This document shows positions 39,301 through 60,300 of a stretch of 64,000 nucleotides of DNA, one piece after another; the first letter of the stretch is position 1, and each line of letters opens with the position of its first letter. A model generated the notes under the pieces. The model saw nothing but the letters and a program-made list of their open reading frames with translations, made no database searches and was not told the origin of the DNA. The DNA is from Candidatus Omnitrophota bacterium. GTDB taxonomy: Bacteria; Omnitrophota; Gorgyraeia; Duberdicusellales; 4484-171. The translations under genes were made by a program, and so were the position numbers. Location of the stretch: the NCBI GenBank assembly GCA_021735655.1, contig JAIPGM010000001.1, forward strand, positions 32,001-96,000, in the 5' to 3' direction.

Positions 39301-42300
39301 CTAGTGATATGGGCATGAAGCCTAGCCGTGTTTTAGCAGTTGAAGCTGGAGTTGATCAAGAGCCGTCAGATAGCCAGACTAATGATAGCCCGTTTGTTCC
39401 TTCTAATCGCATACCTATGATACCGGGCTCTTCTTCACCAGTTGGCTTACCTAATCCTGTTCAGACTCCGCTTGGCCCAAAAGGACTTTCGCCTTTATCT
39501 ATTATTAGAAGGACATCAACTTTTATTACAAATTTAAGGGGTTATCTGGGTTTATCACCGGCTATAGCTGCTGAAGTAGGCGCTGTGCCGAGTGACAGTA
39601 GAAGACAAATAGATGCTTTAACAGCTAAGATTGACGATGAGAGTGATATAAGCTTTGGAAGATCAGCGAATTCGCCCGGCAAGACGGTGGTCCATGCCGT
39701 AATTGCCTTTGTACGGCGATGGATCAATTTTACAGAGGGCAAAATAGCAGTTGGATTTACAAATTTTGGTCATAAATTTGACCAATTTGAAAAAAGAATC
39801 AGCTCTTTATTAGGAAAAATAGGCAGAAATGCCACTTCTGAAAGCGAAAGAGGTGTATCTGGAAGCGCTAGGAGTGTATCTAGAAACGGAAGCCAGGCCG
39901 GAGTAGCTTTAGACAACGGAAAGGATTTAGAAGTCAAAGCTAACCCTGAAGATGGCCGCAGACCGTTAAGAAGAGCTGAGAGTAAGCTTATAGCAGGAGT
40001 AGATAGCATACCTAATAGTAGGGATGCTGAAGAAACTCAAGCTGAAGAGATTGGCTTGGGTGGTAATGGCAGTGGTTCACAAAATGGTGGTCAAGGAACT
40101 TTAGGCGGTTCGTCTATAGAGATCGAACTACCTGTAATTTTAGATTTACGACGTCTTCATGAATCCTTCAGACCAGTAGTAGTTGGCCATAATGCCTCAA
40201 AGGCTCAGGCTCCGCCTGCAAATTCAAGAAAACAAGCAAGTTTAATTTTCTATACCCACCCAATAACTGTACTTGCTTTAGGTTTTATCTTTTTAGGCTT
40301 AAAAATTCCTCAACTTTTACCAATATCCATATTAATAGCTTTAGGTTTATTAGCAATATTGCCGCTTTCTCGGATTCTACCAAACGTGGCCGGTGGGTCC
40401 TTGAGAGCGGCTTTTGATTTAAATCAATGGACCCATCCTACTGTCGAAGTTGCCTCTCCATCAACCTTCCTGGCAAGTGGGTCCCGTAATAATAGTTCCA
40501 GTAGCTCAATCCACACCGATAAGGTTGCCTCTCCAACTTCTAAATTGGTTGTTGGGCTTTCTGGAACTAGTCTTAATAGAGGGGTAAGTAGTAATAGTAG
40601 CAGTAAAACAGAACAAGGGGGTGCAAGATGGTCAGTAACATCAGATCGCTCAGGTTTCAACACTTGGTTGTGGCAACCGATGGAACGATTTTTGCATCAG
40701 CTAGAGACAGCTTTGACCGCATTGAGAACTACATCGTCAGCCGTTTTGGAGATGTTAAGCGCCAGGTTAACACGCGTTTTGAACCGGTTAGATCGGATGA
40801 GGCAGGATGGATTAAGAACCTTATCGGAGTTCCTCAGACGATTCCGATCTATCGGGCAAAGAACATTAGCGTTAGCTAGCGCTGAGAGAGGGTCCGTGGC
40901 AGGACAATTTTCTAAGGGGGTCCGTGGTAGACCACTCGATAATGGCCGAGCTAAAAGATTAGCATCTCGAGCTTTGTCAATAATTACTGCTTTAGCTGTT
41001 TTAGGTTCAGCTAATGTTGTTCAGGCAGCTGAAGCAGGTCAGGCAAGTGATAGCGAAGTAAATGTGGGGTTAGTTTTAGCAGTTGTTTTTGCGGTAGCAG
41101 CAGTTTTAGCAGGAATCAGTTTTAGAATTTATGCCGGACAGAGGATCAAAGATATTGAATCTAAAACTGGAATCCAAGATAGCGCAAGAATTACTAGAAT
41201 CAGAGCAATAATTGAAGAGTTAAAACAAGAAGCTCTCAGGTTAGCTCAAGTCGCTCGAGAAAATGCGATGATAAAGGTTCTAATAGCACCTCAGGGTGAC
41301 CCATATAGAAGACTTAGTGCTTCTGAAATAGAAAAATTAAGAGCTAACCAGAAACCAGATGTAGAGTTGAGATTGTGGGATGTAACTGTGAGCGGAACCG
41401 GAACCGTAAGAATAATTTATGGTTTTAGCGAGGATAGAGTTGATTTCATAGTCATTGCTACCGATGGCGTTGTTCGAAGACAAAGTTTACCACGCGATTA
41501 TGTAGTTGATTCTATTGTAAGCGATAATGTAATTGTCGATTTATATCGTGGGAACCTCAATACTCAGCGAATCATAGAACATAGCATATATCAACGCTTA
41601 ACATCAATTATTGGTAGCTACAACGCAGAATTAGAAGCTGCCCTTGAAGAGGCTGAAGCTAATTCAAAGCAAGCTAAAGAACTATTAGACAGTAACCAAA
41701 GACTATCAGCTCGTGCCATTCGTGCTAGAGCTCGTCAAGCTGCTAGCTTAGCCGGAGCAGCCATTGATAATGCTACAACCTTAATTGAAATCGCCATCTC
41801 ATTGAATGTAGCTAGATTAAGAGCTCGAGCTAAAGTCTTAGAGAGAGAAGCTCAGGCTACTTTAAGACAAGCTGAAAATAAAATACAGAGACCACTTGAT
41901 AATGGTCGAGTGAAAAATGAACCATTAATAGGTTTTAGTCCTAATGGTTTTCATGAAAGTAAACTATTTACAATAATAACGCTAGGTTTGCTTTTATTAG
42001 CCGTAGCAGCAACAGTGACCTATCCGATTTACGCGTTAATGTATTTATCAATACCGCTCGGTGGAACTATCATTCTTTATGCATTGCTCGCTTCTGCGGC
42101 AGTTTTCTTTTCTATTAATTTTATTAACCTTCTTAATAGGATTGAATATTATCTTTTAATCAGTCGAGCACCACAAGCTGAACAAAGTCTAATTAAGGCA
42201 AGGAACTATGTAGAATTTCAGGATGCAGTCTATGCAATAGCTAGAGAGGCTGGAATTAGCATTCCTCATATAGATAGTATAGGCCAAGCTGAGGTTATTA

Positions 42301-45300
42301 TTGATAAAGTTACTGCGTCGCTTGAAGCTAGGGATTTAGATAAAGAAAGAGTTCAGGGAATAAGAACAGCTTTAGAGATGTTATTTTTAGGCGATGGTTT
42401 TGCTTTCGATCTTTTCGCTGCAGCCGTCTATATGATATCTTATCGAGACGAAAATAGTAGGTATCCAGCTTGGGTAAGCGGGTATCAAGAGAATGTTGGA
42501 AGAGTATACTATTCCAATCATCGTAAAACTCGTTCTCATTTGGGAAGTTTCTATCCTTGGTTGAGCATTCTACCTCATGAAGCCATGCATGCATTTTTAG
42601 CTAGAGCTAATTTAATTGATGGCGGAGCGATCGGTGAGGAGATCGCTACCAAAGCTGCTCGTATGAGCGAAAACGTAATAATTAGAGAGGTAGTTTCACC
42701 GTCAACCGCTTGGGAATCTTACCTGAGAAATCATTGGGGAGAAGTTCAAGATGGCTATTCTCATGATGGACAAGAGGTAGAGGTATTAAATATCAGTTCA
42801 ATGGCCCTACGAGGAATTGCTTTAATTCGTTTTATTAGAAATTTACTTAGCTTGAGGCTATTTCAATTGAGAGAGCTAGCATCTTTAGCAAGAGTTATAT
42901 TATTAGGTACACCGAATACAACTCTTGGTTTAGCATTTGCGCTTGATAATGGAAAGAAACCTACTCGAGTATGGAAAAGAATGCCTAGTTTGCAGACGGT
43001 TTATGAAACAAGAGGCAACAGAATTGACCGTTTTTTCCGAGCCATAATGTTAGCTGAGACTTTTGAACAAGAGGAAAAGGCTGTTAGACTAGCTAAGAAA
43101 ACCCTTAACTCAGATGATTATCTCAAATTAATGAAAAGAATTATGGCTTCAGTTGAGGTTGTCGCTGATGATGATCAGACTGATAGTAGAGCAACTCCGC
43201 TCGACAATGGCCGTTCAAGAAGGGTAATACCTAGAACCTTATCAGTAATTGTTACCTTAGTTGTTTTAGGTTCAACTAAAACAGCCTTTGCTTCAGGAGC
43301 AGTCGCTGCCGGCTCAGCAACAGTGCCTTTTTGGGGTGTAGTTGCTATGATTGTTATGGGGCTAGCTTTTGCATATATGTTTGGTTTTGTAGTTTATAGT
43401 ATGATTCGTAGTGCCAATATTGGCGGCCGAGATGAAATTAATGAGTTAAGGGATCGGGTTAGAGAGTTAGGTGGAAGCAAAGCTTTAAGAGAAGCCGGAA
43501 CCCCTGAAGAACTTATTGGAAATCTAAACAGTAAAGGCCAGGTTAGTGAAAACGAAATAGAAGGAGAGCTTGATGTAGTAGAAGCTCAAATTAGGAACAT
43601 TGAAGAAAGTAATAGTTCAAGTTGGTCCCAAGATCAGTTAGTTAGCTTAGAGGGCTATAGAGATGAATTAAGAAGAGAACTACTTGAAGCACAAGAACGA
43701 TTAAGAGTTTTAGAAGAAGAAATTGCTGGAGATATTCGTGCTTTTGAAAGAGCTCATGAATTAAATGTACCTTATGCAGCAGATGGTGATTTAGAAGAAG
43801 CTCCTCAGCCAAAAACTGTAGTTGGTAGAACACTCAGATTAGCTGGTCAAATTGCTAAGGTAGCCGTGGTAGCTACATTTGGCATAATGGTTATTGCATC
43901 TCCGGCTACCAGTTTTGCAGGATCTACCTTTGGTCAGTCGGCAGATGGTTTGGCTATGGACCATAATTCAGATATGGATGATCAGGATATAGACATGGAT
44001 CATTCAATGGGAGCTGTTTTACCGAACACAGAAACATTAACAACTGATGAAGTAGTTTTTGATCCTTCTTCAGTTATTGATTCTTTGTCAGATCAAGCTG
44101 GGGTTGATATAGCCGACACAGCACATTTTAATAGAGAGCTTAGTGGAGCTAAAGATAAGGTTGTTGTGTTAGATTTTTGGGCTACTTGGTGTGGACCTTG
44201 TAGAGACGTGGCTCCACTTTTAGAAGAAATTGCTGAGTCTGATGATAATATTAGGTTATTGAAAATTGACATTGATGACAACCCTGAAATTTTTAATAAA
44301 TTTAAGGTAGTGGATAAGGTAACTGGCAAAGAATTAGTTCCTCAGATACACGTTTTGGTCCATAATCCTAAAAATGGAAATTGGGAACGAAGAGAAGCTT
44401 TGGTAGGTAAAAAGAGTAAAAATCAGATAGAGGCTAGCCTCAGGCCATACTTAGCTGGTTTGGCTAAAGCTGAAACAGAAAGCGATAAGCCGGCCAAGGA
44501 AGCTTCTGAGGGCGAAGCAAGTAGTGGTCATTTTTCAGTTCCTTCAGGGGAAGCGGATTCTAAAGATTTGGCCGAAAGAAGGATTGATGAGATAGAGAAA
44601 AAACTTGTAGCTGAAAAAGAATTAACTGAAAAGAAAAATAAGGCTGATCAAGCTTTTAGCAGCGGTGATTACAGAGAGGCTGCTGAGCTTTATGAGGAAG
44701 TTTTAAATTCGGATTTAGCTAAGGGAGCTTTAGAAGCAATCGCAAAAACAAAGTTGGCTGTTGCTAAGCAGAAAATTGAAGTAGGCGATTCCGATCAGAA
44801 TATTAAAACCACTGCTGTTGGAGATGATAAGGTAGCTCCTGAAAATGAGAGCTTACAGCAAGTTATAGACCAAGGTTTAAAACAAACATCCTCAGCGACT
44901 ATTAACGAAGCGTTAGTTAAGTTAAGAACATATAAGATTGAAGAAGGTAGCTTGTCTGATGAATCTTATAGAGCACTTAAGGCTGAACAAGAAAAAGCTA
45001 TAAGTTTGTTAGTTCAGAGAGTAAAAGCTGTTACTTTTGCTGAGCTCAAAATGCAAAGAGCAATTGAAGCTTCAAATTACAATAAAGCCATGAATGAAAT
45101 CGGTAATGTTTATGTAGAAACATCTACTGATGGTTTAACTAGAGCAATTACCGATGCTATTAATATTCAAGCTCAACACTTAGAGAGTGTATTGACGGCT
45201 ATCCACGTTGCAGACAGGACAGACAAGATTGATTTTGCCTTGAAAGTACTTAAAGAAAGTAAAGGTAAGAATTTACTCCCAGAGGAATTAGAAACAAAAC

Positions 45301-48300
45301 TTCAACAAAAAGTAGATAGAGCTATTGGCGAGCTCACAGCAAGAAAAGCCACAGTTGGTCAAGAGACTGATTCAATAAGAGCGCCACCAACTGATAAACC
45401 AGCTACTGAAGAAGCAGAAGCGTCCACAGATTATTCAAAGGTCGGTATTGAGCAATTGACAGAATTGGTAGATGCTAAGATTAAATCTCAACTTTCTCCG
45501 GAAGAGAAAAAAGTTTATGAGGCAAACAAAAACAAGTTAGATTATTTAAAGAAAAATCATCCGGATCTTTTTAAGAAACTTGTTGTTATTGCCGAAGACG
45601 ATATAAAGGCTTGGTTCGAAGCTAACCAAAAACCAATTGTTCAAGCTCAACAAACAGAAATACATAGAGCCGAAAATGTTCTTAAGCAATTCTTAACAAG
45701 ATTTGGCATAGAGTTTAATCAGCCGCGCTATGTAATGGTTTCGGAAAAATTACTTGATGGTCGCTTGGGCGCAGTTTATATTTTATCTCCGGATACAGTT
45801 ATTCTATCTGATAAATTTGAAGTTAAGCAGAAGGTTAGACCGCAAGGAAGGTCTCAGGGACGAAGCCTAGTCGCCCTTGAACCAGCTGGTTCAAATATCG
45901 AAGCTGCTAATCCTAATGAAAATTCTTTAGCTATCGTAGTTATTCATGAGAATCTTCATTTAGTTAAAAATTCTGGTTTAGGCAGCGATCAGATTAACGA
46001 AGGATTTATCCAACATACAACTGATATATTAGCAAAGCAAAATAATTTTAAAGTATCTCACGATCTATATGAACCGCAAAAGGCAGTTATTTATGCCTTA
46101 GAGGCAGAAATAAGTAAAGTTGCCGGAGTAAGCTTAGCTCAAGCTTACGATATGGTAGCCAAAGGATACTTATTAGGAGATACCAGTTTTATTTCAGCAA
46201 ATATTGGAGAAGGCTCCTGGGAAGAAATTGTTAGTATTTCTAATGAATATAGAGATAAAATGGCTTTTGATAATAATCCGTTGCTTTGGGATAAATATGT
46301 ACCTAGAGTAGCTAAAAAATTAGGGGTTAATGACGAAAGCTTAAAAGATCAGCCTAGAGGTTTGAGAGAGAGAGCTAAGCAGTCAGTGGTTGAGTTAGCC
46401 GTTGTTGTTGGAAAAGTTCAAGAGTCTGACAGCGTAGAGCCCGAAGTATCAGACCAAGAGTTACCTAAAGAAGAGGTCAAGAAGGCTGATGGTGATCAAT
46501 CTGTAGATGCTCAGGTTTATTCTTCAGCTCGAGGATTGAATTTAAAGGATAAACAAGAGGGCGAGCAGTTGCAGCAAGCATTCGCAAAAGCAGTTGTTGG
46601 CAATAATGTACCTGAAGAAGCGTTTGTTGTTACTGGCGATACAGATAAGAATTTTTCTGTTAAAGGCAAATTAAGTAATGAAGATGTTGTTAGTTATAGC
46701 ACTAAGAAGATATCTGAGCGCCAAGAGCAGGGATCTCTTACTGCTGGCAGTTTAATAAAGGTAAGAGAGGTTGGTGGAGATAAGAGTTTTCTCTGGCAGA
46801 CACATTTGGGTGATGTTTATGAATTTAAGGCTGACGGGACAGTAAGTAAACTTATTGATGCACGTGATCAAACGGCCTCTAAAATTAAGGTAAATCCAGC
46901 TGAAGAAGGATTGCTCGATACAATAGGCAGGCATGCTTATGAACAGATGCAGAGAGGAATTACGAAGGGATCTATTTTTAACTCTCAAGAGGAACAAATA
47001 GGTTTTTGGCAGAGAAAGGATAATAAAACTATAGCGGTTATTTATGCAGCTGCTGGCGAAAGAAAAGGTTTCGATGTAAGTTTTACTGAAGAAGTTCGTT
47101 CGGTTGAAGAGCAAAAAGCCAAGAAACTTGCTGATGACCAAGCTGCTGAAAAAGCTGCTGAAGTTAAGAAAGCCGCTGACGCTGAAAAACTTGCTGCTGA
47201 AAAAGCTGCTGAAGCCAAGAAAGTAGCTGATGCTGAAAAACTTGCTGCTGAAAAAGCTGCTGAAGCCAAGAAAGTAGCTGATGCTGAAAAAGCTGCTGAA
47301 GCCAAGAAAGTAGCTGATGCTGAAAAAGCTGCTGAAGCCAAGAAAGTAGCTGATGCTGAAAAACTTGCTGCTGAAAAAGCTGCTGAAGCCAAGAAAGTAG
47401 CTGATGCTGAAAAAGCTGCTGAAGCCAAGAAAGTCGCTGATGCTGAAAAAGCTGCCGAAGCCAAGAAAGTAGCTGATGCTGAAAAACTTGCTGCTGAAAA
47501 AGCTGCTGAAGCCAAGAAAGTAGCTGATGCTGAGAAAGCTGCTGAAGCTAAGAAAGTAGCTGATGCTGAAAAACTTGCTGCTGAAAAAGCTGCTGAAGCC
47601 AAGAAAGTAGCTGATGCTGAAAAAGCTGCTGCTGACAAAAAGATTGCTGATGAAGCTGCTGCTAAGAAATTAGCTGATGAGGCTGCCGCTAAACCAAAAA
47701 CCCAAAATGATGGAGCTAGGGGTATTCGCGCTCCGCCAGCTGCGGAACCAAAGGTTGAAGATCAGCCACTAGCTAAAGCAGAAGAAGCAGTTAGCCAAGC
47801 AATGGAGAAATTGGTTGATGCTGCTAATGCTTCAAATGATGCTGCTAATGCTTATTCCGAAGCTACCAGCAAAGAAGCTGAAGATAAACTTAATAAACTA
47901 GCTGGAGAGTTTGCTCAGTTAGTTTTAGCTAGGGATAATCAAGATGATCAGGTTGTTGACAACGATGGTCAGGTAAAGGCTAAGGAAGCCGAAGTAAGCC
48001 AGAAACAGAAATCAATAGCCGAGCAAGAGGAAAGATTAGAAAAAGCTCTTACTCCTCCAGAAATAAGTGAAGATTGGGAACAGGCTGCCAAGGAGAGGTT
48101 TGGTAAATATAGCCATAATTCTAGGGGTAAATATAATAAAAATAGATTTCATAGCCAGACTCGCACAGTTCCATCAGTAGCTTATGATCAACCAGAAGAA
48201 GATTTTCGTAAAGGAATTCATGAGGTTGTCGGTGAAGGCAAAGAAGCCGCTGCTTATGTTGATACTTCAGTAGTTCATCGTGGTAGTGAAGCGCGTGGTG

Positions 48301-51300: not shown

Positions 51301-54300
51301 AAGTAGCTCCGGGGACCTATGTTATGTTTGTTCAGGGCGCAGGTCGACAAGCCCGTATCAGAGCTGCGGTTGAGAATTTCGTTGCTACTCATCGGGCCGA
51401 AGACGGAACAGCTAAACCAGTTGTTGTCAAAATCGCCGATGGCTCACAGGGTGTAGGTATAGCAATGTTCGGTGTCGAAGAATACGATAACGAGTTAGAT
51501 TTTATCGATGATGCCGTTCAAACTATCCAGGGTTTTCTTAGTGAAGGTCACAGTGTTATGCTTCAAGAACGTGAAATACCGGTTAATGTTGCGGTTAGTG
51601 GCCAGGATTCAAATTATCGTGTCTTTATATCTCGCAAAAACGGAAAGCCAGTTGTAACCAAAATTGTGGTCCGTACTGGTCCTTTTTCGAATGATCCAGT
51701 TAACATTAGTCAGGGTGCCGAAACTATAAGTTTTGAAACAGAAAGCTACGCGATGCTTGGTTTGACTAGCGATGAGCATGCTCGTAAGCGTGAAGCTATT
51801 GAGTCAGCAGCTTTAGCAATGTTTAAGGCTTTAGATGCACAGGCTGATAATGATGCTCTTTATGAAGAAACAGAACGTAGCCAACAAGATTTTGCAAGTG
51901 CCGATATAATTGTTGTTGAAATTGAAGATGCTAACGGCGTTAAGCAGTTCCATCCTAAGATTATTGAAGGCAATGGTACCAATTCAGGTGGTTTTTGGCA
52001 TCTTGATGAATACTATAACAGTAGTTATAGCAGTAAGGGTCGTCAAACAACCGAAAGGGGTTTAGCTATCAAAGAATATGCTGAAACCATAGCCGCTCGT
52101 GCCCGCGCCTATCGTCAACGCCTTGAAGGGAAAGAAGGGGCAGCATACCTTGAACATCTTATGACTACCGCTGTGCAAGATGGCAATGGTTTGGCTGTTT
52201 CTGAAGATATTGCAGTTGATGAAGCCGAATATGATGCAGCGGTTGTTCTTATCGGAGGCTATGTTGATTCTCAGGCCTTGGCTATTTTACAAGCAGCGAC
52301 TGAGAGTGATCCTGCAGTTGCTTTTGTTTGGGTTCGTTGGTCTGGTGAGCTTCGTCGTCGGAAAGGTGTATTATATGTTCAGGATGGCGTTCGCTATCGC
52401 GAGGGCAAATTAGAAGCAGTACACTATGCAGCACCTATTGCTGTAGGTATGGTGCATGCTGCTGGCACTGTCAGCAATAAACAATTACGTAGATTAGGCA
52501 TAACACCACGTACTTGGAATACACGTGTTGAATTTTATATGCATCATAAGGCAGCTACTGCTTATATTTTACGTCAAGCTGGCGTATCAATGCCGAAAAC
52601 ACTTGCTTTCTTGCCGGGTAGTAACAGAGGGCCAGCTCTATTACGCGACGACCCCGATACAGTTATTGTATCTAAGAATGATTTACGTAGAAGAAAAGCT
52701 GCTGTTCGAGTAAGGATACGTCAACGCGTAAGTGAACTTTCAGAATTCACCACTGGCGCTATTGTTAAGCCGGCTAACCGTTCACGTAGTGAAGGCGTTG
52801 AAGCAATCCCTTATACTGGAACCGAAGCAACCATCGATGCTATTACTGATATGATTATGGCTCGTTTGCTTAAAGGCGAAAGTCTTATTCTCCAGGAAAC
52901 ACAATTAGCAAGATCAATCGATGGTTTATATGGTATCGGAAAAACTAGACACTTGGTACGAGCCTTCGGTATGATTGATCCGGTAACTGGGAAACCAGTT
53001 GTTTTTGCCATCAGATTTGATCCAGGACATATGCCGATCGGCGGAGCCGATAGTATTGTAGTTAACGCTACCCGTCATACCTTGACTGCTGATAAGTACC
53101 ACGGTTATACACTTGAAGAAGTTGCTGCTATGTGGGGTATGGATCCGGAAAGCTTACGCAGCAGCATTGAGCAGTTATTCATTGATGCAGTTACTGCAGT
53201 TGCCTCAACGGTTAATCCACGTGGTGTCAGTCAGGCTTGGATTACGACCGATATGATTATCGATGAAACAACCGGAAAGCCGGTTCTCGTCGAGATGAAT
53301 GGTCGTCGTTCAGCTCAAATCTTTGGTACTGAGAAGCACAGATCAGAACTTGCTCGTTCAGGAAAGGCTCCGGCACGTAGTTATACTGCTACTTTTACTG
53401 ATGCTTTAGCTGCGAAGGCCAAGAAACACCTTAAGGTAAGTATAGAAGAGACTTCGACAGCAGCAGTTCCTTTAGACAACGGAAGTAGTCATAGAGGATT
53501 GTCTATACCGGTATTTTTAGCTGGAATTTTAACTTTGGGTTTAACAAATATTGCTTCGGCTGCCGAAAAAGGGCAAGCAACTAATTCAGATAATCCGCTA
53601 TTTGCTTTATTTTTAATAGTTGCTATACCTTTAGCTGTAGCAGCTGTTGTATTCTTATTTGCTATAGATTGGGATTATTATTTTGGTAAATTAACCAGGC
53701 AATCGCCTCCCAGCGAGAGTGAAACCTCCCCGATAGGGGATGATAGATTAGAAGTTGATGGGGCTAGTTCATCCGTGGCTGCTAGCCCTACTTCTTCTAG
53801 CCATAGGGATGAGCCTCATCGACCTCTTGACAACAACTCTGGAGAAAAACGAAGCAGATTTTCTTTAAGATCTCTTTTCGGTGGAACAGCAGATAGCTCT
53901 TCAGCTTCTAGCTCTGCTAGTAGAACATCTCGAGAAACTCGTGCACCACCAGTTTTAAGAATTGTAATAGCTTGGGCTAGCGCAGGTAACATAGCCGCAT
54001 TAAAGGCTTTAGTCGAGCGTATTAGGCAGGATTTAATTGATGGATTACCTTTTGATGTTGTAATTGAAGAAACAGTAGTCTTAACTAAATTAGATAAATA
54101 TAACCAAAGTCATTTAGGCGCAACCAGAGATTCTAGCGTTGGTCAGTATATCCTTCCTTGGCCAAATTTAAAAACTAAAGCTAACGTACCTACCTTAGTT
54201 ATTACTGATGCTGATTTGGGCGGAACATCTGAAGATGATTCTGGAAAACGATCAACAAATAATAGCCTTATGGGCAGGACCTATGCTTGGCAGAATATAG

Positions 54301-57300
54301 CACTGGCCACTACTTGGAAATTCCGCAGTTCAAACCAAGGTCTATCAGATAGAAATAATCGCAATAACATATTACATGAACTCGGCCATCTTTTTGGAAT
54401 AAATCATGAGTGTGGCTGTAAAACCTGTATTATGCATCAAGCTGACTCAACCGAAGAAGTGGCCCGGACGAAACAATTTTGTAAGTCTTGTAATAACGAA
54501 TTAACTAAAATAAATGGTGTTAAATCTAAAAAAACACCACTTGATAACGGTAAACAAACTAGACAATCGTCTCCCAGCGATAGATTAGAAGTTGATGGGG
54601 CTAGCTCATCCGTGGCTGCTAGCCCTACTTCTTCTAAACCTTTGGATAATGGAATATTCGGAGTAATGTTTAGACAAAGAGCCACAAGGATTGATGCTGA
54701 TGGCCATGGTAATTGTTCTGCTGTGACTATTTGGGCTAAGAGAGTTGAGGCTTGGGATGGTTATTTTTCAGAGGGAGAGTCTTTTTATATAGCAGGTATT
54801 GAAGATAGTAGCGATTCATTAGGAGAAAGTACAGATCCTAGGTATGTACGAACTGTAGAAAGATCGGAATCTTCAGATAGGTCTCAAAGAATAGTTAAAG
54901 TAGAAGTCGCTGAGGGTGAATTCACGATTATTGAATTAGAAGACGGATCGGTTATTGCTCATGCCCATATATTTCCAAGACAGGGAACGGCCGATACTGC
55001 TTATTGGCAGCTTATTAGAGTGTTGGATTATTTTACCGACTCCAGAAATGGTTTTGATCAAGATAGCTTAAGAATTGCTTTTGGTTGGGAAGAACGTTTA
55101 GATGGATTTGGTTACGATGCAATTACTTTTAATAGAAGGTTGTTTAGAACTTCGGATTATATGGGGGATGGTCGAGGGCCAGTTTATAGTTCAGCTATGA
55201 CTTGGGATCAACAAGTCGCCGCAGCTGGTCTAGTCGGAGTATTACCTAGTGGTACCGAGCGCATTAATGAGTTAGAGCAGTTGGCCAGAGACAAAGGCTT
55301 TGAAGTTATTTCTTCAAATACCCGTCAATATACGCCAGATCCGGCAGGTTCCGGACAGGGGATGACCGCAACAGATATTAGCGTAACATCTAGTGATTAT
55401 TGGTTGTCGCATAGGCAGGCAGAATTTAGATTTCATTTACGCTTATCAGAAGATAAAAGACCGTTAGATAATGGTAAAGAGAGTGATTTACAGATTCCTC
55501 TTGATAATGGCCCAAAAGGACAGTCTGAATTAGCGGCTAATACCTTAGGCTCTCTAATTGCCGGATTAGTCGCTGCACTTCCAGTTGTTGGGTTGGTGGC
55601 GGGCGCCTTAGCTTTAGTAGTTGTACTTCCGCCGGCAATAACAACAACGACCGCAGTAGTAGTAATCGCAGTAATTGCGGCAGCAGGAATCCTATCGCTT
55701 CCTTTTGCCTATATCTCAGTAATGTTTTTGTCACAAGGCTTAAGAATTGCCATAGCTAATGTTGTTCATGGCGGCATAAGAGGCCCTACTGCTTTAACTG
55801 AACCTATTGCTACTCCGGGCAGTAATGTTTCAAGAAAAATTCCTGAATCAATTATGCCTTTAGCTCTAAGACATTCCATTAACCAGGTTCATGAACAAGC
55901 CCATCGTGATGGAAAAGATGAGCTTGGTGCTTATTCTGCTCAAGCAAAAGATTTCTTGGCTAAAGGAATAAAAGTTTTAATTCATCTTGGATTACTAATC
56001 GGTGCTACTAAATTAGTTTGGATAACTGGTTTCGGTAGTTTATTTAATGTATTTGTTCCAGCTCTCGTGGTCTTGGTTGCTGTTTTTTACCTATGGAAAG
56101 ATTTAAATTCCTTAAGGGATAGTCAGCCAATTAAACTTTTCTATGAATCTCGGGTTTTACTGACTCAAGCTGAAAGTTTAGCCATTGGCACATTTGTTTC
56201 AGCCCGTGGTGTTCAAAGCCAAAGGGTTGGGTTTGCCGATAGAAGCTTAATTGATTCAGTCTCTCGAGTAGTTACTAATCCAGTTTTAGTAGTAGCTTTT
56301 GTTTTATTAGGAATTTCGGTACCGTTAACTGGCGGAGCAAGTTTCTTCAGTCTAGCTGTATTGCAAGGTGCTCTTTTTGGAGTCTTTGCTCCTTATTTGT
56401 TTAATGTGTTATGGAATTTTTTCTGGGATCATGCTCAGAAGGATGATTACCTGCAAAAAATAGCCGAAGGTTATAAAGCTAGAACACTTTCAACTAATAA
56501 TTTGAACGAACTAGATAGGTTAGTTAAGCTTTTTGAGGATGGTTTAGCTAAGGCAAATAATTTTGAAAGAGTTTGGTTTAGGCTAAAGAGCTTTTGGATA
56601 ATAGGATCAGTAAGACTTCCAGCCTTAACCGGACCAGCTAAATTTTTGATAGGTAGGTTACAGTTAGTTTTCTGGGGTTCAGTAATAGCTCTAGGAGTTC
56701 TTCCTTTTGTTGATCAATGGTTATTAAATATTTTTGGAGTTGGGGCTGAATTTTCTTTGCTCAACCTAATTGGTTATGATGGCGTTAAAGATGGCGCTGC
56801 CAGCTTGAGTCTTTCACATACAATCGGTGGCTTAATAAGAACTGGCATAATTGTAATGTTGCTTAAGATTTTTAGCCGTAGATTTTCTCAGCTTAGGAAT
56901 AATATTCAAAATAACCGACTAGCCAATGGTAAGGATATCAAATTAGGTTCTTTGAGCGCTGGGTACTTAATTAAGAATTTTGATAGAGTAGATAAAGATT
57001 CAATAAAGCTAGCGCTTGAGCGGGGTTTAATTAATCCTTCAGGAATTCCGGCAGCTAAGGCGCTATTACGCGAAATGCTTGGAACTGAAGGCATAAACGT
57101 TGTTAATCCTTCAGTTTCCGGGAAGTTATTCCATCAGTTCTTTTATTACCTTATTCCCGATGCAATAACTTTTCTAGTCGTTATTTCTTCGCCGATATCC
57201 GGTTTATTGTATTTTTTACATAGAAGAGTACTTAAGAATTTAAACAATGATTTCAGTGTAGCGCATCCTTATTATTCTTTATGGCTTATGCAGGGCCGCG

Positions 57301-60300
57301 AGTATTGGGTAAGTTTTGGGCATATGTGGATAATATCAGCTGAGATTGAAGCAGTTGTCGATAGCGGCGATTATCTTGCCGGACATCAAGTTTTAAAGCA
57401 TGTTGGTGGTCAAGAAATAGGTCAGATTGCTCATCTCTTAGAAGGTAAAAATGGAGCAATTTCTTGGGGTGGCCATATTTTAGGATTAGTAGAATCTTCT
57501 TTAGGCATAAGCTTGGCTCAGGTTGCCCATAATGCTTTAGGTGGTGAAACTGATGTTGTAGCTTGGCAACAAAGCAACCAACTCAAGATTCAAATTGACA
57601 CAATAGAGTCGTCTAAAGATTTTAAAAGAATACATTCTAGAGCGAATGCAGAAGTTTTGAAGAATGCTGATGCCCTAGAGCAAATGTTTTCCTTTGAGGC
57701 AGAACGGAATGAATTAGAAGAATCGGTAAGAGTCCATGCTCGCAGTCTCCTTTATCAAGCTGCTGCTAGTAAAGAAGCGCACGATAATGTGTATGATCAA
57801 GATGGAAAGCTAAAACTTGATTTAGCAGTAGAGATTGTTGCAGCTAGGGTCACCGGTAGTATTTTAGGTAGAGTATTTTCAATGGGTCAATTTGGTGGCA
57901 GCAGTTCCTTGGGTAGCGAAATAGAAGTTGTGGTTGATGGGGACGCTGATGTGGTTGGATCAGAACCAAAAGTAGTAGCTGCTCCGTTAGACAATGGAAA
58001 GCCAAGCGAAAGACCGGTTGTTGATTCAGAAAAGGTAGATTCGGTTTCACCAAACCAGGCAGAGGGTTCTACGGTTGAAGATAGTTCAGAGGCTAAGGCT
58101 TCAGATACAAGAGAGGTCAAACAGTCCAGAGCGCCACCTGAGGAATCAAAGGAAGGTCTATTAACTCGTTTAAATAGAGGAATTTTCCGCAAAGTAGCTC
58201 CGGTCTTATTAAGTTTGCATATTGCTTTTTCACCGATAACTGAGTACTCTTTAGCTAGCTATTTAGAAAATCAAAATCAAGCAGTTGCAGTTCAAGTCCA
58301 GGAAGTTGACTCATTAGGGACGGTAGTTGATTATAGCCGTAGTCGAGACGGAAGCGCACTGAATGAAGCAAGGATTAAAGCTGAAGTTGAATCAACTCCG
58401 AGTGAAGCAGTTGATTTTGAACGGATTAACCGCGGCGGTGAACTGGATAAAGCTCGAGGATTTTACCAGACCCAAGGTCTAAAGGCTGCTTCGGATAGTT
58501 TTGCCGAGTATTTCAGACAACCTGGTAAGATTAGAGTAGGTGATTATGATCGATTTACCGGATCAGTCTATAATGGCAAATTATATCTATCTGAAGATAC
58601 CTTAGATGATTCTTCAGAGTTAACTCTTACCCTAGTCCATGAAATTGGAGCTTTCGCTAAAAGAACTCATGCTCAAAATAAAGCTATGGAGTATAAGTTC
58701 TTGGTAGCTGAAGGAAAAGTTCCTGAAATTGCTTTAGAGATGGATCCGGTATCTCGAGAAGTTGTTAAACTTAAACCAGGAAATACCATAGCGATTATCG
58801 AAAAGCCTAATGGCGATTGGGTTGCTGTAGGTAAAGATGGAAAAGAAACTGTTATATTTGGAGCATCTATCCAGGTCGCCGAAGGGGCTAACCCACCTTC
58901 AGCCTATGGTGAAAATAAGCCAGAGTTACCTTATCGTAACTTACACGATACTGACAGAGTAAAAACTGAAGATGGGAAAAATCTGACTAGTGTTTTAGAT
59001 CAAATCGGATTAAACTTTCAGCACTTCTACCTGATGACTAACCCTACTGCTGAGCAGTTAAAGATACTAGAAGGGATAGTAACAAAGGCAAGAGCAAGGG
59101 GTGTTGAAACTATGGTTACCTATTGGGCTGGTCAGCATACTAAGAACATTTCTTTAGAAGCTGAAATTAAGCAGGCTTTAAATATTCCGGCCGAGAGAGA
59201 TTTGACTGAGTTTAACTTAAGGCCGGTTGAGGATTGGAATAAGCTTACTCAAGTTAAGCAAAATCAATTAAAGGCCCAATTGGGTATCGCTGCTACTGAA
59301 ACTGTAAATGAAATACAGATTCAAAATCTTTTAATGCTTGAAAGCTGGAGTCAAATACCAGCGGCTCGGCAAAAAGAGCTTAGAGCCCAGATTGGTATCA
59401 GCGAAGCGGCCAAGTTAAGTATAGACCAGATAGATACGCTTTTATTTATCAATCTTTGGCAAAGTTTGCCGGTAGCTAAGCAAGCAGAGTTTAGAGGACG
59501 CTTAGGCTTTGAGGCTACCGAGAAACTCACCGATATCATGCAGATTGAATCAGGTCTATTTACTCTTTATAATCCTACCGCTGAAAATAAAAAGTATATT
59601 GTCGATCAGGCAAAGATGGTTGCCGAATGGGCCAATCAAGTTGGCGTTTTTGTAAAGATTGCTAATGAAATTAACTACTATGATAAGAATGGTCCGGTTC
59701 TTGATCTTGCAAAGATAAATCCAAACCAAATGGTCAATTTGTTTCCTCATCAGTTATATAAATTTTTAAACGAGGAAATAGCAGTATTGTTTAATAAGGA
59801 TAAAGTTTTCTTAAGCTTAGGAAGGTTAGATGTTCCTGGTTTTGAAGATGAGCCATTCTTAAAAGATAATCTTTCAAATTTCAAAGGGTTGGCCTTAAAC
59901 CTTTATCCTAACTGGGATCCTCAATTTGGCGGCTCACGTGAAACCGATCAATTATTTAGTTCGATAAACTATAGCCGTGGAATCATTGGTAGCATGCAAG
60001 CAGCAGCAAGTTTAAGAGTTCCAGTAATAATTTCAGAGTGGGGCGAGTCTTCATATTTAGCCGGCATTGCTAAAGCTATAGGAATTGGTGAAGTTGGTCA
60101 GGCTCTTTTTGCCCGAACTTTTTATCAGGGAATTCTACCATTTGTTGCCGGAAATAGTGATCCTAAATATGCTGATCGAACTCAATTTCCGAAAGTTATA
60201 GTTGGTGCGATCGTCTATAGTGGTGCTTACGAACAAGGTTGGCAGGCCACCTTAGATCCAGCTGAGCCAGGGTTGTCATTTACCGAAGTTGTTGACGCTT

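Follow-up and report, generated by a model that had tools for sequence, protein, structure and literature searches.

A probable archaemetzincin cassette bracketed by repeated junction peptides in a giant Omnitrophota protein: a candidate for polyprotein processing

Can a giant bacterial protein carry, among its own units, the peptidase that separates them? The question is raised by a 64,000-nucleotide (nt) stretch of contig JAIPGM010000001.1 of Candidatus Omnitrophota bacterium (assembly GCA_021735655.1, positions 32,001 to 96,000 of the forward strand), called here the window. Reading of its frames showed no in-frame stop on the plus strand from position 21363 to the window end, that is, 14,212 codons. 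In this open reading frame (ORF) a preliminary description had noticed a zinc-peptidase motif like that of the archaemetzincins (AMZs; peptidase family M54) among repeated PLDNG peptides, and had raised the possibility of autoprocessing. We examined the identity of the domain, the arrangement of the junction peptides around it and in its relatives, and the explanations that this arrangement allows. All coordinates are those of the window, and the features of the giant protein are on its plus strand.

Identity of the embedded peptidase domain

The frame with codon starts at nt positions equal to 0 modulo 3 (codon at 54363) encodes NNILHELGHLFGINHECGCKTCIMHQADSTEEVARTKQFCKSCNN. As previously noticed, HELGHLFGINH, at nt 54375 to 54407 (amino acids (aa) 11005 to 11015 of the giant protein), is a metzincin HExxHxxGxxH, with three zinc-ligand histidines, the catalytic glutamate 11006 and the metzincin glycine. 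It is followed, at nt 54411 to 54491, by a zinc-finger-like Cys4 element and the Met-turn (C11017-GCKT-C11022-I-M11024-x15-C11040-KS-C11043); the cysteines are at aa 11017, 11019, 11022, 11040 and 11043, that at 11019 being an extra one, and the methionine of CIM is aa 11024. The outer limits first given for this feature (54300 to 54520) were correct, while the inner ones (54375 to 54440) cover only HELGH...CIMHQ, the whole 45-aa peptide requiring 54363 to 54497. The motif HExxHxxGxxH is expected by chance 2e-4 times in the giant protein, and of the 14 cysteines present in 14,212 aa five lie within 27 residues, a number reached in 0 of 20,000 random placements. The motif is therefore not a chance occurrence.

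The search with the Pfam profile Peptidase_M54 (PF07998), which had been suggested together with the family resemblance, gave a match of 35 to 37 bits against a gathering score of 24.4 (E 4.5e-9 to 1.8e-8), over profile positions 133 to 194 of 194 only, the C-terminal third. The best sequence matches in the PDB were not non-peptidases, an outcome that the preliminary description had considered, but the archaemetzincins 2x7m, 3lmc, 3zvs and 4axq, aligned from HExxH to the final CxxC. In an alignment of 34 embedded and free-standing members (A1), the columns D92, G112, H146, E147, H150, C158, C163 and C181 were invariant and R127, G149, G153, H156, M165 and C184 nearly so (G153, H156 and M165 being at least 90% conserved); the window module carries every one of them. 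The Met-turn, whose absence had also been envisaged, is present, M11024 being aligned, and C11017-x4-C11022 and C11040-x2-C11043 align with the family columns C158, C163, C181 and C184, a predicted zinc site. An AlphaFold2 model built on the 34-sequence alignment had a predicted local distance difference test score (pLDDT) of 87.8 and a predicted template modelling score of 0.86. Its comparison with known structures by Foldseek ranked archaemetzincins at the top (five matches from four PDB entries, E 2e-11 to 1e-8), and the predicted fold was that of a metzincin with an N-terminal alpha/beta subdomain, an active-site helix and a C-terminal zinc-finger subdomain.

We conclude that the folded unit at nt 53952 to 54515 (aa 10864 to 11051) is very probably a complete archaemetzincin-type M54 zinc-metallopeptidase domain, with an intact catalytic site and a Cys4 structural zinc site predicted from the alignment and the model. 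That it could instead be a degenerate or fortuitous match, and not a functional peptidase, might be argued from the limited extent of the PF07998 match, from a one-residue insertion after the third histidine and from a spacer of x15 instead of x17 between cysteines. Conservation also concerns residues of the N-terminal subdomain (the TDxD aspartate, FG and R127), and the expectation given above for HExxHxxGxxH speaks against such a match as well, so that this reading is extremely improbable; as a chance match it is effectively refuted by the alignment, the AlphaFold2 model and the Foldseek ranking.

The published fingerprint of the family is HEXXHXXGXXHCX4CXMX17CXXC (PMC3427221), from which the window copy departs by an extra glutamate between the third histidine and the first cysteine, by the extra Cys 11019 and by the shorter spacer. 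The classical AMZs, namely AmzA of Methanopyrus kandleri (2x7m), those of Archaeoglobus fulgidus (3zvs, 4axq) and Methanocorpusculum labreanum (3lmc) and AMZ-tk of Thermococcus kodakarensis, are free-standing proteins of 160 to 230 aa, whereas the window module is a cassette within an ORF of more than 14,000 aa, is preceded by a transmembrane hairpin and has a conserved junction motif, [S/P][L/F]DNG(G), on either side. It is part of a separate subfamily, the members of which share 28 to 39% identity among themselves and about 20 to 25% with classical AMZs, and which is marked by a conserved N-terminal RAPP motif. An insertion of about 10 residues between the glycine and the third histidine, which the window copy lacks, is present in most relatives; its carriers include the M54 modules of P0001, P0002, P0003, P0005, P0006, P0007 and P0008 (P and L numbers designate protein representatives and DNA loci, respectively). 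The Met-turn methionine is replaced by isoleucine in L002 to L004 (CAIHF), and the third histidine by aspartate in P0004 (GLEDC). CarG of Myxococcus xanthus (in PMC3427221) is likewise a bacterial AMZ homologue within a larger functional context, but it is regulatory and non-proteolytic and has HQxxH, with a glutamine for the catalytic glutamate; HExxH is intact in the window module and in every embedded relative.

Junction peptides around the domain and along the chain

The repeated PLDNG junctions, previously put at about ten, were found in our census to be nine PLDNG, one PLDNN and two ALDNG, all within aa 6183 to 12209, in good agreement with that estimate. Nine PLDNG compare with 0.011 expected, and none is present in the first 6,500 aa of the giant protein. 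Since the synonymous codons used for P, L, D, N and G vary, selection must act on the amino acids, and the signal lies in the peptide rather than in repeated DNA. PLDNG as a DNA-level element, considered because of an out-of-frame TGATAA in the copy at 54537, was rejected: the 12 sites differ in codons and the exact 14-mer occurs once.

The M54-bearing unit opens with the PLDNG at nt 53469 to 53483 (aa 10703 to 10707). There follow a predicted transmembrane hairpin at nt 53499 to 53666 (aa 10713 to 10731 and 10750 to 10768, scoring 1.84 and 3.03, respectively, in a Kyte-Doolittle 19-aa window), a first linker copy at nt 53685 to 53810 (GKLTRQSPPSE...DRLEVDGASSSVAASPTSS), the PLDNN variant that forms the upstream border of the cassette (nt 53823 to 53837; aa 10821 to 10825) and starts 182 aa before HExxH, a serine-rich stretch of 39 aa, and the M54 domain. 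The downstream border is the PLDNG at nt 54537 to 54551 (aa 11059 to 11063), the DNG core of which starts 18 aa past the last cysteine. A second linker copy at nt 54549 to 54647 (GKQTRQSSPSDRLEVDGASSSVAASPTSS) then forms a 34-aa mini-segment that ends in the PLDNG opening the next module (nt 54639 to 54653; aa 11093 to 11097). The two linkers that flank the M54 module are a direct DNA repeat, with 69 nt at 91% identity and 35 nt at 83%, which suggests cassette shuffling, a recent insertion by recombination between the linkers or a duplication of the linker.

Relatives of the module surfaced only by an exhaustive HMMER search and by patterns derived from the alignment; a word-indexed protein search with the M54 module and single-sequence scans of genome and metagenome contigs returned nothing, and the giant protein itself is absent from the protein collections. 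The HMMER search, over 1.84 billion representatives, gave 42 matches, eight of which span the whole 207-aa query at 28 to 39% identity. Most of these eight are parts, mostly fragments, of long multi-enzyme proteins, in which the order of domains is for instance PGM, M54, PGI; M54, transaldolase, transketolase, HAD; M54, dNMP kinase, ..., B12-radical SAM; or starch synthase, ..., M54, GDPD, transaldolase. Nine further loci, seven in Omnitrophota genomes and two in metagenomes, were found by scans with the alignment-derived patterns to carry the module within an open frame of long or giant size. Of these frames, seven are open on both sides and reach 6,873 aa; L006 (a frame of 1,504 aa) is truncated on the left and L007 is the DNA of the representative P0007. 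The relatives scored 37 to 51 bits with PF07998, over longer stretches of the profile than the window copy, and hold full-length Pfam domains in one frame, PGI and HAD as well as PFK, TAL, TK, PGM and others.

In the giant M54-bearing frames LDNGG or SLDNG was the most frequent 5-mer, and in those rich in the motif DNG occurred 8 to 19 times over expectation while the permuted NGD, GND and DGN were at background. Comparison of 41 non-redundant sites gave the consensus [S/P][L/F]DNG(G), with serine in 25 and proline in 10 at position -2, leucine in 28 and phenylalanine in 9 at position -1, D, N and G in 41 of 41 and glycine in 34 at position +3; there was no conservation outside the hexapeptide. 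Junction peptides of this kind are, for example, KKTPLDNGKQTR and ESLDNGGS. Variants follow lineages: PLDNG-x in the window, where none of 13 DNG sites is followed by glycine, GSLDNG[S/A] in L011 and PRTNGS in P0004. Inspection showed no clean pattern of covariation between the junction variant and the insertion before the third histidine.

The motif lies between complete enzyme domains. In L004 a HAD domain (profile positions 1 to 178 of 178, aa 302 to 478) stands between motifs at 291 and 497, a PGI domain (profile positions 1 to 486 of 486, aa 1730 to 2242) stands between motifs at 1676 and 2258, and PFK starts 21 aa past the motif at 3724. Around M54 the spacing is nearly constant, a [D/T]NG starting 17 to 20 residues past the last M54 cysteine in 10 of 11 cases (27 in L011) and an upstream motif preceding HExxH by 155 to 182 residues in 12 of 16. 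The only DNGG in the 6,851 aa of L008 is the one just before M54. In both AlphaFold2 models the junctions flanking the M54 module, the only junctions modelled, had a pLDDT below 50; they are thus predicted to be disordered and would be accessible.

L006 (CAZBSU010000120.1, 36 to 4517) is not a giant: it is an ORF of 1,493 aa with a multi-transmembrane N-terminal region and coiled-coil repeats, at a locus that includes a masked run of N. Its M54 domain is C-terminal, the sole DNGG of the ORF is just before M54, and its stop codon falls 18 residues past the last cysteine, where the junction otherwise begins. The pair of junction and M54 therefore exists outside giant ORFs. In other relatives, mini-units were seen between consecutive DNGG, a HEAT-like unit of about 72 aa ('LRIKAVESLGRLPLDKNETIAIPALEAMLAVETD...') and then a unit of 31 aa ('SFLLRVQPLIIFAQTVNAYGG...'), in two or three copies per frame (L004, aa 715 to 850, 1260 to 1340 and 2582 to 2715; L003, aa 637 to 780).

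The other PLDNG copies of the giant protein are at nt 40932 to 40946 (aa 6524), after which come a basic stretch and a transmembrane hairpin, at nt 41892 to 41906 (aa 6844), at nt 43197 to 43211 (aa 7279), at nt 55461 to 55511 (two copies 12 aa apart, aa 11367 and 11379) and at nt 57984 to 57998 (aa 12208). At the junctions near aa 6525, 6845, 7280 and 10704 PLDNG is followed within 9 to 46 residues by a transmembrane helix pair, and near aa 11380 by a single predicted transmembrane segment. PLDNG followed by a basic stretch and a hydrophobic helix pair recurs at nt 40932 to 43300, 53469 to 53666 and 55497 to 55620, so that most units look like hairpin-anchored membrane proteins. The hairpin before the M54 module would tether it to the membrane, and the domain most likely faces the cytoplasm, because it has a Cys4 zinc site, the hairpin is made of an even number of helices and its relatives are found among cytoplasmic glycolytic enzymes.

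Processing by the embedded peptidase and other explanations

The explanation that we prefer joins the M54 identity of the domain to a polyprotein mechanism. The giant ORF and its relatives would be polyprotein-like chains, the units of which are separated by short disordered linkers bearing [S/P]-[L/F]-D-N-G-(G). The embedded M54 peptidase would recognise the hexapeptide and cut within or beside it; it would free itself first, both of its own borders bearing the motif at fixed distances, the other junctions would then be cut in trans, and membrane-anchored or soluble units would be released. Taken as a whole this is the best explanation that we can offer, although a tentative one, in our estimate somewhat more probably wrong than right. 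Processing of the junctions by M54, for which we infer catalysis, cleavage at the motif and the order of cis then trans, is possible but held with low confidence, and it is doubtful that Omnitrophota have a cellular polyprotein system in which the hexapeptide signals cleavage and the archaemetzincin is the dedicated processing protease. Autoprocessing at PLDNG, as proposed in the preliminary description, is plausible, neither proven nor refuted by these data, and is strengthened by the comparison of relatives because the motif is family-wide, lies between complete domains and has a fixed spacing around the M54 cassette. Archaeal AMZs are inactive on generic substrates (PMC3427221), which suggests a stringent specificity, and a zinc-dependent self-cleavage has been described for AMZ-tk (PMC4681839).

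Such a chain would resemble viral polyproteins, which likewise have many units per ORF, a short motif at the borders and a protease unit flanked by its own sites. The viral systems to compare are picornavirus 3C and alphavirus nsP2, the enzymes of which are cysteine or serine proteases. The Omnitrophota chains differ in that the gene is a cellular bacterial one, the candidate enzyme is a metzincin metalloprotease, central-metabolism enzymes are among the units and cleavage is only proposed.

Several points weigh against this explanation. In an AlphaFold2 model from junction to junction neither motif was in the active-site cleft, a result that is not decisive since their pLDDT was below 50. The upstream border of the window's own cassette is PLDNN and not PLDNG. 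The M54-bearing frames L032, P0008 and P0013 have no motif (L032 having linkers rich in S, P and A instead), and M54 can therefore exist without it. Human AMZ1 and AMZ2 have been reported as aminopeptidases and not as endopeptidases (PMC3427221). The cytoplasmic orientation of the domain was deduced from the features given above. Finally, M54 could be just another passenger among concatenated ordinary enzymes, and another protease could be encoded where the ORF continues past the window.

These last two points combine into an alternative in which the motif is the cleavage signal of a different protease, for which a C39 or S8 domain encoded by the ORF past the window end or a peptidase with a gene of its own is a candidate, and M54 is carried along as a housekeeping enzyme like PGI or PFK. 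The frames of the relatives do concatenate many unrelated cytoplasmic enzymes, M54 is present in the motif-free frames mentioned above, and free-standing AMZs of 180 to 240 aa without the motif are common (50 of 52 metagenome loci, and P0005, a free-standing member of the subfamily in a metagenome-assembled genome (MAG) of Planctomycetota). The -GG end of the commonest variant presumably resembles double-glycine sites; DNGG is never found in the window (0 of 13), however, and a Gly-Gly-specific enzyme therefore does not fit the giant protein. C39 and S8 peptidases have been proposed for processing in other giants of Omnitrophota (West-Roberts et al., bioRxiv 10.1101/2023.11.21.568195), but M54 is the only peptidase Pfam domain in the 14,212 aa of the window and in about 24,000 aa of relatives, with no C39, S8 or other peptidase family among them. 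Moreover, the junction before M54 persists where other junctions are absent (L006 and L008). We regard this alternative as unlikely.

The junctions may also not be cleaved at all, the motif being a conserved element between modules (for docking of a partner, as punctuation for folding or translocation, or as a turn) in a giant that works as one chain, while M54 acts on prey or host-cell proteins or on regulators, or is, as has been suggested for certain AMZs, a metzincin with a latent or regulatory role. Archaeal AMZs have occluded active sites and are inactive in standard assays (PMC3427221), the AlphaFold2 model showed no docking of the junctions, published models depict giants as single, membrane-anchored chains rich in transmembrane helices, and peptides of the V. 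archaeovorus giant have been detected with no report of processing. A six-residue motif that is identical across lineages at about 30% module identity, between unconserved flanks, points however to recognition by a specific factor rather than to flexibility alone; the junctions fall where complete enzyme domains begin or end, and in L006 the corresponding place holds a real stop codon; and the catalytic glutamate and the zinc ligands are kept in all embedded copies, unlike in CarG. An uncleaved chain is on this evidence distinctly unlikely. As for chemistry of the motif itself, formation of a succinimide at Asn-Gly could lead to backbone cleavage or to deamidation with isoaspartate, a breakpoint or timer independent of M54. 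Asn-Gly is the most deamidation-prone sequence in peptides, N-G is the sole strictly invariant dipeptide over PLDNGx, SLDNGG, GSLDNGS and PRTNGS, and the sites are in linkers predicted to be disordered. Succinimide chemistry at Asn-Gly favours deamidation over chain cleavage, though, and it would explain neither the conserved S/P, L/F and D before and G after the dipeptide nor the fixed spacing between motif and M54, which makes this possibility very improbable.

The giant gene and its Omnitrophota context

The window giant shares with the giant proteins of Omnitrophota ('Archaeovorins') an origin in an Omnitrophota MAG, an ORF of more than 40 kb adjoining a Tad cassette, many transmembrane helices and few recognisable domains, and its relatives match the 'multi-enzyme metabolic cluster' class, with PGM, PGI, radical SAM, response-regulator and HEAT modules concatenated. 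These giants are described in West-Roberts et al. 2023 (bioRxiv 10.1101/2023.11.21.568195), Seymour et al. 2023 (PMC10066038) and a 2026 preprint (bioRxiv 10.64898/2026.06.07.730766), and their association with Tad cassettes is part of that published work. A C39 (or S8) domain near the N-terminus, by which Archaeovorins are defined, is absent from the first 14,212 aa of the window giant; its recognisable peptidase is M54, which is without mention in the searchable text of the giant-gene papers. Neither M54 or archaemetzincin nor a junction or linker motif is mentioned in the main texts of two giant-gene preprints, PF07998, archaemetzincin and DNGG are absent from one of their supplementary files, and full-text literature searches with the motif strings gave irrelevant matches only. 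The domain family is already known, the module being a member of M54; what is new is its context, namely that of an AMZ cassette lying in giant ORFs of Omnitrophota between copies of a conserved hexapeptide by which the other parts of the chain are set off as well.

Whether giants undergo cleavage is a question posed by West-Roberts et al., according to whom the cleavage points are unknown, a gap that blocked even their strategy of structure prediction (bioRxiv 10.1101/2023.11.21.568195). A hexapeptide that delimits complete enzyme domains provides explicit candidate cut sites, which can be used to split giants of 10,000 to over 100,000 aa for annotation and can be searched for in existing proteomes; it is a practical parsing rule for giant ORFs even if M54 is not the processing enzyme. 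Archaemetzincins are conserved from archaea to humans and their structures have been solved, but they have no known natural substrate and are often inactive in vitro. A specific candidate for the substrate peptide is offered by the conserved motif that stands at fixed distances on both sides of the AMZ cassette. If the proposal holds, this would be the first natural substrate and biological role for the family, and large parts of the proteome, including in the relatives enzymes of central metabolism, would be expressed as virus-like polyproteins and cut into membrane-tethered or soluble units. Two questions thereby become directly testable: whether and where giant bacterial proteins are cut, and which substrate archaemetzincins have in nature.

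The giant ORF comes from an Omnitrophota MAG labelled 'Candidatus Omnitrophica bacterium' at NCBI (locus tags K9L86_). A gene call on an identical public assembly (Logan contig) places the likely start of the gene at ATG 21375, so that the ORF hosting the M54 cassette extends from nt 21375 to 63998 and encodes at least 14,208 aa, its 3' end being open at the window edge. Tad-pilus genes, one TadE/G-like and two T2SSF, are located upstream. Pfam recognised only two families across the 14,212 aa, Thioredoxin and Peptidase_M54, with no C39 or S8 peptidase domain in aa 1 to 14212 and no match of any kind in aa 1 to 5000, while hydrophobicity analysis gave 26 candidate transmembrane segments.

Four matches to the c-di-GMP-I riboswitch (RF01051) were above the gathering score, all on the plus strand, at nt 21060 to 21253, 4517 to 4628, 13196 to 13283 and 14782 to 14870. 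The first (50.5 bits, with an insertion of about 100 nt) is within the 574-nt gap directly 5' of the giant-gene ATG 21375 and the other three precede ORFs of the Tad-associated cluster, so that the giant gene, like its neighbours, appears to be under c-di-GMP control.

The thioredoxin-fold module (PF00085, 58 bits) is at nt 44115 to 44435 (giant aa ~7585 to 7691), with a CxxC at aa 7610 and 7613, and may face the periplasm because it comes after the PLDNG at aa 7279 and about three predicted transmembrane segments. Three further HExxH, namely HEAMH, HENLH and HEQAH at nt 42576, 45945 and 55890 (giant aa 7072, 8195 and 11510), bring the total in the giant protein to four against 0.18 expected; two of the three are near predicted transmembrane segments, and no zincin family was detected at any of these three sites by Pfam with E up to 1. 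The module right after the M54 cassette (nt 54654 to 55460; giant aa 11098 to 11366) contains 'DADGHGNC' with the rare Cys 11118. This peptide resembles the catalytic loop of OTU cysteine proteases, but it is no more than a lead, for which Pfam (E up to 10) and a phmmer search of the PDB found nothing. A tandem repeat at nt 47142 to 47652, with periods of 18, 36, 51 and 123 nt, encodes an array rich in Ala, Glu and Lys ('AEKAAEAKKVAD'); the repeat explains the long spurious ORFs on the minus strand at nt 46752 to 47638 and, locally, the positive AT skew seen over 44 to 50 kb.

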